Source of the DNA: Candidatus Vampirococcus lugosii
GTDB taxonomy: Bacteria > Patescibacteriota > Gracilibacteria > Absconditabacterales > Absconditicoccaceae
NCBI RefSeq assembly: GCF_018420025.1
Contig: NZ_JAEDAM010000099.1
Coordinates: 1 to 12,758, forward strand
Reading direction: 5' to 3'
Length of the DNA stretch: 12,758 nucleotides
Each line of letters begins with the position of its first letter. The stretch's first letter is position 1. Shown here in pieces: positions 1 through 12,758 of the stretch. The position numbers were made by a program, and so were the translations under genes. Below the pieces are notes generated by a model. The model was given only the letters and a program-made list of their open reading frames with translations. It was not told the DNA's origin and did not search any database.

Positions 1-178
1 TTAAAATATATTTGTTTAAAGTATCACTAAAAATCAAAAACTATCTAAAATTTAATATTGATAATAGTGTTAAATTTATTATATATCAATATAATTAGTA
101 AATTAAATTGAAATAAAAGTTTTTATTATTATACATATATCAATTTATACTATATTTAAAAAAATATATTTATATAAT

Positions 179-1408
179 ATGAAAAAAATTTGAATAATAT
201 GATGATGAGCTAGTTGAATTATGTTAAGTGCTAGTTTGATTGAAAACTGATTTGATGGAAAAATTACTATTTTTGAAAAAAATAATAGACTTTGAAGTAA
301 AGTTCTTATTAGTGGGGGAGGTAGATGTAATATTACTACTTGAATTACTAATAAAAAAGAATTTATTTCAAAATATCCTCGTTGACAAAAATTTGTAAAA
401 TATTATTATGGAAAATTTTGACCAACTAAAGTTTATGAACGATTTCAAAAACAATGAATTGAATTAAAAATTGAAAAAGATATGAGAGTTTTCCCAAAAT
501 CAAATTCTTCAAATGATGTTTTAAATATATTTTATAAAATTTTTGAAAAAAATAATGTTGATATAAAATATCAAACTGTTGTAAATAATATAACAAAAAC
601 TTGAAATATTTTTAAAGTTTATACTCAAAATAAAATTTTTGAATTTGATAAAATAATAATATCAACTTGATGAAATGCATATTCTCATACTTGAAGTAGT
701 TGAGATGGTTATTCTTTTGCCAAAAATTTTTGACATAAAATAACTAAATTATGACCAAGTTTAAATAGTTTCAAAACAAAACAAGATTTTACCAGTATTT
801 CATGAATTTCTTTTCAAGATTGATATTTCAAATATAATTGAAAAAATATTTATTGATCAATATTATTTACTCATTTTTGAATTACTTGACCTGCTACATT
901 TATTTTATCATCAAATTCAAGTTTTGAAAAAATTACTGAAAAAACTCCTTTGAAAGTGAAATTTATAGCAAATAAAAATTATGATTATATTTTTTTGGAA
1001 AAATATATTTTGGAAAATATAGAAAAATTTCCTAGGAAATATATAAAAAATATTTTGTATAAACTGTATCCAAATAAATTTGTAGATTTAATATTAAGTT
1101 TTTTATGAATAGAATCAGAAAAAAGAGCTTGTTATTTATCAAAAGATAAAAGAAAATTAATAAGTAATAATTTTTGAAATTGATTTGAAATTGATTTAAT
1201 ATCAAGAAAAGCTTGAGATGAATTTGTCACAGCTGGTTGAATAGAACTATGACAAGTTGATATAAATACTTTGGAAAGTAAATTAATATCATGACTTTAT
1301 TTTGTATGAGAAATACTTGATGTAGATTGATATACTTGAGGTTTCAATCTTCGGTGGTGTTGGGCAAGTGCATACTGTTTATGAAAATCTAAAAAATTAT
1401 GAGAATAA
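179..1408 (+). CDS. NAD(P)/FAD-dependent oxidoreductase, HI0933/YhiN/BaiN-like flavoprotein (409 aa under code 25)
   Basis: ATG at 179, TAA at 1406-1408; open only if TGA is sense. The N-terminus MKKIGIIGGGASG carries the dinucleotide-binding GxGxxG at 188-217, with every Gly of that motif encoded by TGA. The family signature ISGGGRCNITT is present. The C-terminus reads [40 protein letters not shown], as in this family. My hand count is about 36 in-frame TGA versus 8 GGN codons. Confidence 0.85.
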
Positions 1409-1502
1409 AGTTAATTAAAAATACTTTTTTCTATTATGATAATGTATATTATAATAATAGAATAAGGGGGTAAATTTTACAAATAAAAACTTTTAAAAAA
1501 TC

Positions 1503-1530
1503 TTGAATATATTTTTTATTTTTATATAAT
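1503..1530 (+). promoter_or_regulatory. Candidate sigma70-type promoter upstream of trmD (TTGAAT-16 nt-TATAAT)
   Basis: TTGAAT at 1503-1508 and TATAAT at 1525-1530, 43 nt upstream of the trmD ATG. Such hexamers arise easily by chance in sequence this AT-rich. Confidence 0.3.
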
Positions 1531-1573
1531 ATTTAATTAATTTATATTTTTATTAAATTCTTAATATTTATTT

Positions 1574-2257
1574 ATGAAATTTCATATAATATCAATTTTT
1601 CCAGAAATTTTTGAAAATTTTTTTTCTACATCTATAATTTGAAAATCTATAGAAAAAAAAATAATAGAAGTTTCAATATATAATCCTAGAGATTTTACTT
1701 ATGACAAACATAAACAAGTAGATGATGAAATTTACGGCAATTGAGCCTGAATGTTGATAAAAGCAAAACCTATTATTGATTGTGTAAATAATATTCTTGA
1801 AAATATAAAAAATAAAACTTTTGTTATTATTTATCTTTCTCCTAGTTCTATACAGCGAAACCAAGAATTAGTAAATTCTTTTTCTATATCTTATGAAAAT
1901 ATAATATTAGTAAGTGGTAGATATGAATGAATAGATTATCGTTTTGAACAATATTTTACAGATAAATATCCAAATAATTTTTTCAAAATTTCTATATGAA
2001 AATATATAATGATGTGATGAGAAGTACCAAGTATGATTATTATTGAATCAATTTCAAGATTAGTTCCTTGAGTTATTAAAGAAAAAGATAGTGTTTTTTA
2101 TGATAGTTATTCTATAAATGAAAATTTAAATAATTTGGAACATCCTCATTATACTAGACCAATAAATGTTTATGGTTATTCCGTTCCAGATATATTAATC
2201 TCTTGAAATCATAAAAAAATACAAGACCGAAGAGATCAAAATACTAAAAATATTTAA
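1574..2257 (+). CDS. trmD: tRNA (guanine37-N1)-methyltransferase TrmD (227 aa)
   Basis: MKFHIISIFPEIFENFF... parallels the TrmD N-terminus (xxFxVITLFPEMF). DDEIYGNGAGM matches DDRPYGGGPGM (TGA at 1742 and 1748). GRYEGID has TGA at 1928. SIGKYIMMGGE, PHYTRP and LISGNH are also present. There are 9 in-frame TGA, all at positions that are Gly in TrmD. Stop TAA at 2255-2257. Confidence 0.93.
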
Positions 2258-2279
2258 TTTTAATTAATATATTATTTTA

Positions 2280-10899: not shown

Positions 10900-10920
10900 A
10901 TACTTGATTAAATCAAGTAT
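10900..10920 (+). terminator. Perfect 9-bp hairpin downstream of zwf
   Basis: ATACTTGAT (10900-10908), loop TAA, then ATCAAGTAT (10912-10920), starting 21 nt after the zwf stop. There is no strong T-run immediately 3' (AAATGATTTT). Confidence 0.45.
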
Positions 10921-10950
10921 AAATGATTTTAGTAAAATTATTTATTTAAC

Positions 10951-10990
10951 AAAAAATAAAAAATAAAATTAATTTTATTTTTTATTTTTT
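10951..10990. terminator. Perfect 40-bp A/T-only palindrome, candidate bidirectional terminator between convergent genes
   Basis: AAAAAATAAAAAATAAAATT (10951-10970) is the exact reverse complement of AATTTTATTTTTTATTTTTT (10971-10990). It is flanked by A/T runs on both sides and lies between the zwf stop (10879) and the stop of the minus-strand gene (11016). Confidence 0.45.
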
Positions 10991-11015
10991 ATTTTTACAA
11001 TAAATAAATTAAATA

Positions 11016-11279
11016 TTATACAATAATATTACTTCATCATTCATTAGAAACTTGATCTCATTCTTGTCAAGAACTTCCTTCTTGCTGTTGAGAAACTATA
11101 GATTCAATAAATCATGAAACTAAAATTCATATTACTTCTTCATCAGATTGAATTTCTTGACCTGTCATTTGTTGTAATACTTGTTTAAGTTGAGTTATAG
11201 CTTGATATAATTCATCAGATATTTCAATTTTATGAGTTACTGATTCACTTGTTGTTTCTTCATTATTTTCTTCCACCAT
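11016..11279 (-). CDS. Small acidic hypothetical protein (87 aa)
   Basis: ATG at 11279, TAA at 11016-11018: MVEENNEETTSESVTHKIEISDELYQAITQLKQVLQQMTGQEIQSDEEVIGILVSGFIESIVSQQQEGSSGQEGDQVSNEGGSNIIV. It is open only with TGA=Gly (7 in-frame TGA). GC content and codon texture look like the neighbouring genes. I recognise no motif. Confidence 0.55.
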
Positions 11280-11451
11280 TTAAGATTTCTGTTATTTAAA
11301 TAAATATAGCTATAATTTACATATAATAATTAAAAAATCAAGTATAAATTAAAGTTTTTTGTCGCATACTAAATTGTCAGTAATAGAATATTATTCTTAA
11401 TTTTTTTTATACTTTTACTAACAATTCTATTTGTTGTTTTTGTACGAGCAA

Positions 11452-12758
11452 TTAATAAAGTCAAGAAACTTTAAATGGATTTGACATAGTATACAAGTTA
11501 TTTCAAGTTTCATCATATAATAAGGATCTAATATAATCTCAATTTGCAATATCAGATTCATAATCAAATAAATGACACGGACAAGAATTACAATTTATAG
11601 AACTCAAAGATGCATCAAAATTATAATTTGAAAAATTAGGTATTTGAGTTCATAAATCATTATCAGAATTTAAATCATCATCAGTATCCAAATAATCATT
11701 TAAATTAATACAAGCATCTCATAATCATTGTCATGTACTATTTATTTGATTAGGATTATCTACAAAAGGACAATTATCATAATTTTCTGGATTTAAACTA
11801 GATAAATTTAATTGCTCTTGTAATCTTGAAATATTAATATTTCTTTGATCATAGACACAATTTCAATCTTCAATTATTTCATCATTAATAAGTCATAATA
11901 AATTTTTATTTCAATCTCAATCAATATCATCATCACAAATATCAGGAATTCAATTTCAATTCATATCACATTGATATATTGAATTTAATTCATCTTCTGG
12001 TAAAGAACATATATCGGCTCAAGAAATAAATAAAGTCAAACTTGTAGAAATATCTCAATATGATTCTGTTTCTACTACCAAAGAAATTTTATAATTTCAT
12101 GAGCTATTATATTTATAAGTTTTATTTAAATTTTCACTAAAATCTTGATCAAAATTTTGTATATCTCAATTTCCAAAATCCCATTTTATATTTTGAATTT
12201 GTCATAGTTCCAAATTTTCTATAATTCATTGAATATTAAAGCCTTTACCAACATTAAATTCTAATTTATCTGAAATTAAATCTAAACTTGGAGCATTTCC
12301 AGACTCCCCTACTCAGACAATTATTTTATTTTCTATTTCTGTTCAATCTTCAAGATTAATTTTTTGAGTAATTTCATAATCTCAAGGTTGTTCATAAACA
12401 TATGATATATCAGTTCATTCAGTATTTATATTTTCTCAATCTCATAAATCCCAATTTACACTCTGTATATCTTTAGGATTAATTCATTGTATTTCAGTAT
12501 TTAAATCAATTTTTTCTCATGACGAAATGTTATTTTTATTGACTTTCAAATTAGTTCAATGAAAAGAATTATTATTATTATTATTATTTATATTATTATT
12601 ATTATTATTTATATTATTATTATTATTTATATTATTATTATTATTATTATTATTGTTTATATTATTATTATTATTATTATTATTATTATTATTATTATTG
12701 TTTATATTATTATTATTATTATTATTGTTTATATTATTATTATTATTATTATTGTTTA
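11452..12758 (-). CDS. Large secreted/surface protein, 3' portion only (N-terminus lies beyond the window): poly-Asn region, two PKD-like domains, Cys/Asp-rich thrombospondin-type-3-like Ca-binding repeats
   Basis: The reverse-strand frame is open from the window edge to TAA at 11452-11454 (435 complete codons). PKD-like motifs are SVNWDLGDGENINTEGTDISYVYEQPGDYEITQKI (WDLGDG at 12453-12436) and IKWDFGNGD...TYKYNSSGNYKISLVVET (12183-12163). TSP3-like repeats are CDMNGNGIPDICDDDIDGDGNKN and NCPFVDNPNQINSTGQGLGDACIN, followed by NDYLDTDDDLNSDNDL. Confidence 0.85.
12568..12758 (-). repeat. In-frame trinucleotide array (AAT)n on the coding strand, encoding poly-Asn punctuated by Ile
   Basis: On the plus strand there are ATT tracts of 7, 6, 5, 8, 13, 7 and 7 units, separated by TAT (first three junctions) or GTT-TAT (later junctions). 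This gives 63 visible codons, 57 Asn and 6 Ile. The array continues past the window end. Confidence 0.95.

Follow-up and report, generated by a model that had tools for sequence, protein, structure and literature searches.

UGA as glycine, and CGA very probably as tryptophan, on a contig of Candidatus Vampirococcus lugosii

Which genetic code has to be assumed for a stretch of bacterial DNA in which hardly any gene can be called? The question is raised by Candidatus Vampirococcus lugosii, one complete contig of which (12,758 bp, hereafter the window) was analysed here as a whole; the guanine-plus-cytosine (GC) content of this contig is 18.8%. A preliminary description had proposed that TGA is a glycine (Gly) codon throughout the window, as in translation table 25. 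We find that TGA is read as Gly in the window and that UAA and UAG are its sole terminators. In addition, CGA very probably stands for tryptophan (Trp), as judged from the alignment columns in which it occurs, a change that table 25 does not contain, and by analogy with the clade the same would probably hold for CGG. The reading as a whole (UGA as Gly, UAA and UAG as stops, CGA and probably CGG as Trp, with V. lugosii as the source) is held here with very high confidence.

Coverage by open reading frames (ORFs), taken from stop to stop and counted from a length of at least 100 amino acids, was compared across code tables. Under table 11 such ORFs span 9.2% of the window, and with TGA as a sense codon they span 85.6%, in line with the earlier claim that the window is nearly non-coding under the standard code and about 85% coding once TGA is sense. 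In 200 dinucleotide-preserving shuffles the TGA-sense coverage averaged 3.4% with a maximum of 12%, and the longest ORF reached 178 codons, compared to 577 in the window. Setting TAG to sense gained no coverage, and setting TAA to sense only produced overlapping ORFs on both strands. Since the window looks non-coding otherwise, reading TGA as sense is a precondition for annotating the contig. The TGA-sense ORFs resolve to ten large genes, non-overlapping apart from the 23 nt given below, and one gene of 87 amino acids. For each of them the TGA codons are listed here next to the standard Gly codons (GGN), together with the Pfam matches; these were searched on translations that carried X in place of TGA, which kept the Gly assumption from inflating them:

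179–1408, forward strand: gene 1, HI0933-like flavin adenine dinucleotide flavoprotein of 409 amino acids (PF03486, 5e-55; TGA 36 versus GGN 8; TAA stop)
1574–2257, forward strand: trmD, tRNA (m1G37) methyltransferase of 227 amino acids (PF01746, 2e-31; TGA 9 versus GGN 3; TAA stop)
2280–3077, forward strand: patatin-like phospholipase of 265 amino acids (PF01734, 2.5e-16; TGA 20, GGN 0; the sole TAG stop)
3089–3760, reverse strand: OmpR-family response regulator of 223 amino acids (PF00072 and PF00486; TGA 11 versus GGN 3)
3777–4994, reverse strand: sensor histidine kinase of 405 amino acids (PF00512 and PF02518; TGA 10 versus GGN 6)
5852–7159, forward strand: gene 6, hypothetical protein of 435 amino acids, a long ORF only with TGA as sense (no Pfam match; TGA 16 versus GGN 2)
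7308–7805, forward strand: hypothetical protein of 165 amino acids, a TGA-sense ORF (TGA 4 versus GGN 2)
7783–9516, forward strand: hypothetical protein of 577 amino acids, a TGA-sense ORF with a 23-nt overlap with the preceding gene at 7783–7805 (TGA 16 versus GGN 3)
9545–10879, forward strand: zwf, glucose-6-phosphate dehydrogenase (G6PD) of 444 amino acids (PF00479 and PF02781, 3e-76; TGA 21 versus GGN 5)
11016–11279, reverse strand: small acidic ORF of 87 amino acids (TGA 6 versus GGN 2; TAA stop; GC 27%, compared to about 10% in true spacers)
11452–12756, reverse strand: PKD-domain surface protein with its 5' end beyond the contig (PF18911 and PF00801; TGA 28 versus GGN 5)

Six of these genes, namely gene 1, trmD, zwf and the genes of the patatin-like protein, the response regulator and the histidine kinase, gave strong Pfam matches that extend through many masked TGA positions. 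The ten large genes contain 171 TGA codons in frame and not a single in-frame TAA or TAG; the off-frame counts in these genes are 221 and 290 for TAA, and 91 and 64 for TAG. Across all eleven genes the in-frame TGA codons add up to 177, and in-frame TAA or TAG remain at zero. Ten genes terminate at TAA, one (the patatin gene) at TAG and none at TGA, a recount that matches the eleven genes and the single TAG stop reported before; the 87-amino-acid ORF is probably the eleventh gene of that count.

Could these ORFs be a by-product of composition in decayed or non-coding AT-rich DNA, or in pseudogenes, that follow the standard code? The extremely low GC and the table-11 coverage of only 9% speak for such decay. 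Shuffles with the same dinucleotides, however, peak at 12% coverage and 178 codons, TAA and TAG are missing in frame though abundant off frame, and the Pfam matches are full-length and go down to 3e-76. Standard-code loci of 23–28% GC (Caenarcanum, 23.5%; Pelagibacteraceae, 28%) still retain a table-11 coverage of 95–98%, so that the recoding signal is not reproduced by low GC as such. Pseudogenes and a composition artefact were rejected on the basis of the shuffles, the absence of in-frame stops and the Pfam matches, and the probability left to this explanation is vanishingly small.

A second possibility is that UGA is dual or context-dependent, that is, mostly Gly and elsewhere a stop, selenocysteine or ambiguous. 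This code is known to be at risk from U34 wobble between UGA and UGG (PMC8629427), which would give such ambiguity a basis. Against it, none of the eleven genes terminates at TGA, and all eleven gene ends lie within a few codons of the ends of their homologues. Selenocysteine at TGA was rejected, as 177 in-frame codons are far too many for it and the Rfam search of the window returned no SECIS family. Dual decoding is on these grounds regarded as very improbable.

The amino acid inserted at TGA was identified from the columns of homologue alignments. Many entries from the recoded clade carry depositor translations in code 4 (W) or code 25 (G); for this reason W-rich sequences were set aside, and distant homologues and PDB proteins of standard-code organisms were used as the basis. 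In G6PD and the HI0933-like protein together, 35 of 57 TGA columns are majority Gly, a state that is found in 1.8% of the remaining columns (P = 1e-46, binomial). Gene 1 contributes 24 of its 36 TGA columns to this figure and zwf 11 of its 21, with no majority-Trp column in either. In TrmD, seven of the nine TGA columns are approximately 100% Gly among 44 distant homologues, and all nine positions are Gly in the TrmD of H. influenzae. Taken together, 0 of the 66 TGA columns tested are majority Trp; the pooled Trp frequency at TGA columns is 1–3%, mostly contributed by other mistranslated relatives. The TGA positions thus fall on Gly columns and never on majority-Trp columns, and the Gly assignment put forward in the preliminary description is borne out.

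The PDB homologues of standard-code organisms point in the same direction, with Gly at 31 of 42 aligned TGA positions and Trp at none. BasR has Gly at six of the eleven TGA positions of the response regulator, including the invariant RGxGY. P. aeruginosa PlpD has Gly at 11 of 16 aligned TGA positions of the patatin-like protein, among them its GxSxG, DGG and oxyanion GG-x-x-G motifs, which are all TGA-encoded. For the kinase the comparator was a VicK-like protein, with Gly at five of six aligned TGA positions; TGA encodes the glycines of the G1 box (DxGxG) as well as those of the G2 box (GxGLG), and these too align to Gly. The individual motif codons, TGA coordinates and hand counts given earlier were all reproduced exactly: positions 188–217 read ATT TGA ATA ATA TGA TGA TGA GCT AGT TGA; TGA is present in trmD at 1742, 1748 and 1928 and in zwf at 10058; the patatin codons at 2385–2399 are TGA ACT AGT ATG TGA; and on the reverse strand the kinase has GAT GAT TGA TTA TGA ATA at 3960–3977 and the PKD-domain protein TGG GAT TTA TGA GAT TGA at 12436–12453.

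Translation table 4, in which TGA is Trp, is used by Mycoplasmatales, Entomoplasmatales and several insect endosymbionts. It resembles the code of the window in having UGA as sense in AT-rich reduced genomes, with loss of release factor 2 (RF2) as the expected mechanism, and differs in the amino acid (Trp there, Gly here) and in the phylum. A table-4 reading opens the same ORFs, and several public pipelines have translated these genes in this way (P0121). It would, however, turn the catalytic Gly motifs into Trp and lead to proteins with 5.3% Trp and 1.0% Gly, compared to 5.8% Gly and 0.5% Trp when TGA is read as Gly. Together with the absence of majority-Trp columns (0/66) and the pooled Trp of 1–3%, on which table 4 was rejected, this makes it extremely improbable. 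The preliminary description had excluded the Mollicutes-type code by another route, namely a TGG-TGA pair (read as IWG) in the response regulator. The pair is present at 3230–3235 on the reverse strand, but this argument is not valid, as Mollicutes use both codons for Trp; at this site BasR has YS and the Pelagibacter orthologue GN, so that the comparators are uninformative. Code 4 is excluded by the column statistics, not by the TGG-TGA pair.

In the ten large genes TGA accounts for 171 Gly codons and GGN for 37, a TGA share of 82%. TGA is therefore the preferred Gly codon of the window, as had been claimed from the counts in gene 1 (36 versus 8) and trmD (9 versus 3), both of which are confirmed. 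The relation between this share and GC was examined in loci obtained by a YchF search, 20 from SR1/Absconditabacteria and about 60 with the standard code, and in two loci of the closest relative, an ENA scaffold with a GC of 22% and 59% amino-acid identity:

Recoded loci with a GC of 34–40%: TGA share of Gly codons 13–31%
Recoded loci with a GC of 26–32%: TGA share of Gly codons 64–76%
Closest relative, GC 22%: TGA share of Gly codons 88–91%
Window, GC 18.8%: TGA share of Gly codons 82%

Across the 22 loci of recoded relatives the TGA share climbs as GC drops, an effect that is not seen in standard-code loci of low GC. UGA is the sole Gly codon with only one G or C, and in this code the step from GGA to UGA is a single synonymous change. 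Because of these two properties, AT mutation pressure would be the simplest account of the takeover, and may have moved 82% of the Gly codons of the window to UGA. In the comparison across relatives the captured stop codon rises from 13% to about 90% of the Gly codons as GC falls from 40% to 19–22%. For Absconditabacteria and Gracilibacteria a genomic GC range of 0.21–0.53 has been reported (PMC8629427); the 18.8% of the window lies below it, and is the value of one contig, not a genome average. No GC value for V. lugosii was found in its genome paper (PMC8080830).

Both the organism and the Gly assignment of UGA can be placed in a known context. The window is from V. lugosii, a predatory member of the Absconditabacteria (SR1) within the candidate phyla radiation (CPR). 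Translated with code 25, zwf and trmD give proteins that agree with NCBI proteins of V. lugosii residue for residue (P0001 and P0241, respectively), and the next best protein matches, at approximately 50–60% identity, are from SR1, Absconditabacterales and Gracilibacteria, the lineages in which the contig had been placed beforehand. Both results fit a position in the Absconditabacteria/Gracilibacteria, GTDB class JAEDAM01. The reading of UGA as Gly is already known, the code since 2013 and its use in this organism since 2021. Campbell et al. and Rinke et al., both from 2013, are said to be the sources for table 25, the SR1/Gracilibacteria code. The genome paper of V. lugosii reported UGA as reassigned to Gly (Moreira et al. 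2021, PMC8080830), and the literature, this organism included, thus agrees with the earlier remark that code 25 had been described for Gracilibacteria and SR1. The window shares with table 25 UGA as Gly, UAA and UAG as only stops, UGG as Trp, a low-GC genome-reduced CPR host and, indeed, the published organism itself. Three differences remain: the GC of the window is below the range reported for the clade, UGA is here the majority Gly codon (82%) rather than an additional one, and table 25 keeps CGA and CGG as arginine (Arg), whereas CGA is found here on Trp columns.

The last difference emerged from a Codetta-style tabulation that covered every codon of two genes and in which the rare CGN codons were flagged. 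Each of the other codons for which there were sufficient columns follows the standard code, with TGG on Trp columns and GGN on Gly columns. Among the 3584 codons counted, Arg-type codons are distributed as AGA 64, AGG 6, CGT 2, CGC 0, CGA 4 and CGG 3; AGA predominates (64 of 79), and CGN is depressed. The seven CGA and CGG codons of the window are the following:

440–442, forward strand: CGA, gene 1 codon 88, very probably read as Trp; 103 of 119 homologues have W in this column, and TGG stands at the site in the closest relative
2228–2230, forward strand: CGA, trmD codon 219, very probably read as Trp; W occupies this column in all 43 of the distant homologues, and the site corresponds to the W of KWR in H. 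influenzae TrmD
1856–1858, forward strand: CGA, trmD codon 95, consistent with Trp; distant homologues have L or F, close relatives F (38), W (16), 'R' (14) and L (5)
6623–6625, forward strand: CGA, gene 6 codon 258, uninformative, the gene having no homologue among the fetched loci
6566–6568, forward strand: CGG, gene 6 codon 239, likewise uninformative in the same gene
3674–3676, reverse strand: CGG, response regulator codon 29, in a variable column
1352–1354, forward strand: CGG, gene 1 codon 392, in the motif FNL[CGG]WCWAS; meaning uncertain, with Trp expected from the clade

All three informative CGA codons are thus on Trp or aromatic columns, two of them strongly Trp and one F/W. Both CGT codons (380–382 and 1940–1942) are on columns that are 100% Arg, and the one in gene 1 is also CGT in the closest relative. 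It may be speculated that CGT at essential Arg sites is "frozen", as CGT could change to AGA only via a non-synonymous intermediate if CGA and CGG do not encode Arg. In the SR1 YchF genes CGT is only slightly commoner on Arg columns than AGA (62% versus 57%).

Further evidence comes from the relatives. In 20 SR1 YchF orthologues, 0 of 19 CGA/CGG codons are located on conserved Arg columns. At one YchF column, where the standard-code sequences have Trp without exception (61 of 61), the SR1 orthologues use TGG, CGA or CGG only, CGG being among the codons used, and a second, SR1-specific site likewise alternates between these three codons only. Reassignment of CGA and CGG to Trp has been reported for the Absconditabacteria (Shulgina & Eddy 2021, eLife, PMC8629427; also PMC13092985), although Vampirococcus is not mentioned in PMC8629427. 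The window resembles this extended code in having CGA on Trp columns, depressed CGN codons and, in its relatives, the interchange of TGG, CGA and CGG. It differs in that its only informative CGG is on a glutamine (Gln) column, and in that the public annotation of V. lugosii lacks the change.

These data also bear on the proposal that plain table 25 is sufficient, with UGA as Gly its sole departure and CGA and CGG still read as Arg. The deposited annotation was made in this way, with genes called by Prodigal under table 25 (PMC8080830), the window holds only seven CGA/CGG codons, and its sole informative CGG lies off Trp columns. On the other side stand the TrmD column of codon 219, which is Trp in every distant homologue, the gene 1 column of codon 88 (88% Trp, with TGG in the closest relative), the YchF genes with their two alternating Trp sites, and the reassignment published for the clade. 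In view of these observations plain table 25 is judged clearly unlikely. Of the earlier proposal of table 25, the Gly assignment of UGA stands, but the table is incomplete, as CGA occupies Trp columns (43/43 and 103/119). The same applies to the statement that Trp is still encoded by TGG: TGG does sit on Trp columns, but would not be the sole Trp codon, CGA being another.

The CGG of gene 1 at codon 392 is an exception to this pattern. Its column is Gln in 113 of 119 homologues (95%). The closest relative carries CGG at the same site (11180–11182), and this is its only CGG in the 5860 codons of a 21-kb locus. Synonymous sites are saturated between the two gene 1 orthologues, with 152 identical codons compared to 147.7 expected from codon usage. 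A CGG that is kept under AT pressure is unexpected for Arg, Trp and Gln alike, as AGA, TGG and CAA, respectively, are the preferred codons. A metagenome scan with gene 1 for closer relatives found none. One way to accommodate the site is that the V. lugosii lineage carries three reassignments (UGA to Gly, CGA to Trp and CGG to something other than Arg), the decoding of CGG being distinct or site-specific; CGG would then be Gln, or would be read ambiguously by a dedicated tRNA(CCG). We consider this unlikely, though with some small chance, and CGG as Trp, the expectation from the clade, remains the probable reading.

With respect to the mechanism, literature on the clade suggests that UGA would be decoded by a dedicated tRNA-Gly whose anticodon is UCA and that RF2 would have been lost, while CGA and CGG may be read by tRNA(UCG) and tRNA(CCG) with Trp identity (PMC8629427). 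Both tRNA-Gly(UCA) and RF2 loss have been reported for the clade, with RF2 loss as a hallmark (PMC8629427; gTranslate preprint). In the sister lineage BD1-5, 97 unique peptides support Gly at UGA and three support Trp (PMC4032931).

Several observations weigh against the reading of UGA as Gly with CGA and CGG as Trp, and have to be set beside the evidence above. About 40% of the TGA columns are not Gly-conserved, as is expected for variable positions, where GGA codons behave alike. ARAGORN found no tRNA in the window, and in 26 loci of relatives only tRNAs for Leu, Gln, Met and Thr; the anticodons UCA, UCG and CCG are thus missing among the tRNAs of the window and these loci. Finally, the sole informative CGG of the window is the one on the Gln column just described.

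CGA/CGG as Trp, known for the clade since 2021, has not been applied to the annotation of V. lugosii, and reassignments beyond UGA are absent from both its genome paper and its public proteome. This proteome is very probably mistranslated at CGA codons, and probably at CGG codons as well, for example at the invariant Trp of TrmD; in the NCBI TrmD of V. lugosii (P0241) both CGA codons are rendered as Arg. With CGA and CGG as Trp, the correct translation would differ from the deposited table-25 proteins at seven codons in four genes. What is new is limited to this minor correction of the annotation and to a single unusual CGG that is conserved, and the extended Absconditabacteria code should be applied when V. 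lugosii proteins are modelled or aligned.

The public databases were also observed to conflict with each other. In Logan and ENA entries each TGA has been rendered as Trp; in NCBI entries TGA is Gly and CGA is Arg (P0121, P0122, P0241). P0121 is gene 1 itself with W at all 36 TGA sites, the product of a code-4 pipeline. Approximately one quarter to one third of the top homologues are W-rich mistranslations of this kind, which can mislead a naive column-based inference of the code.

Among the other features of the window, genes 6–8 (5852–9516) have no Pfam match, and tblastn against all fetched SR1 and other loci returned no homologue for them. The PKD-domain protein, whose N-terminus is missing, contains a 63-codon poly-Asn tract of AAT repeats with occasional Ile (12568–12756, reverse strand) that reaches the end of the contig; this repeat probably caused the assembly break. 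The 25 nt upstream of genes 1–9 consist almost entirely of A and T and show no purine run resembling a Shine-Dalgarno sequence.

The true spacers of the window have a GC of 9–12%. An 857-bp spacer upstream of the histidine kinase gene stands out, with a local GC of 30% at 5053–5207 compared to about 10% in other spacers. At this position the reverse strand matches 6S/SsrS RNA (RF00013) along the full length, though below threshold, with 29.9 bits compared to a gathering score of 46.4, an E-value of 0.0064 for the whole window (4e-4 for the spacer), and model positions 1–187 covered. The fold of the candidate is a rod that has a bubble at its centre (-36.2 kcal/mol, z = -2.95). The remainder of the spacer (5295–5770) gave no Rfam match and no convincing ORF, with only ATG ORFs of 62 and 40 amino acids on opposite strands. 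Its GC is also raised (20–28%), and it could hold another small RNA or small gene.

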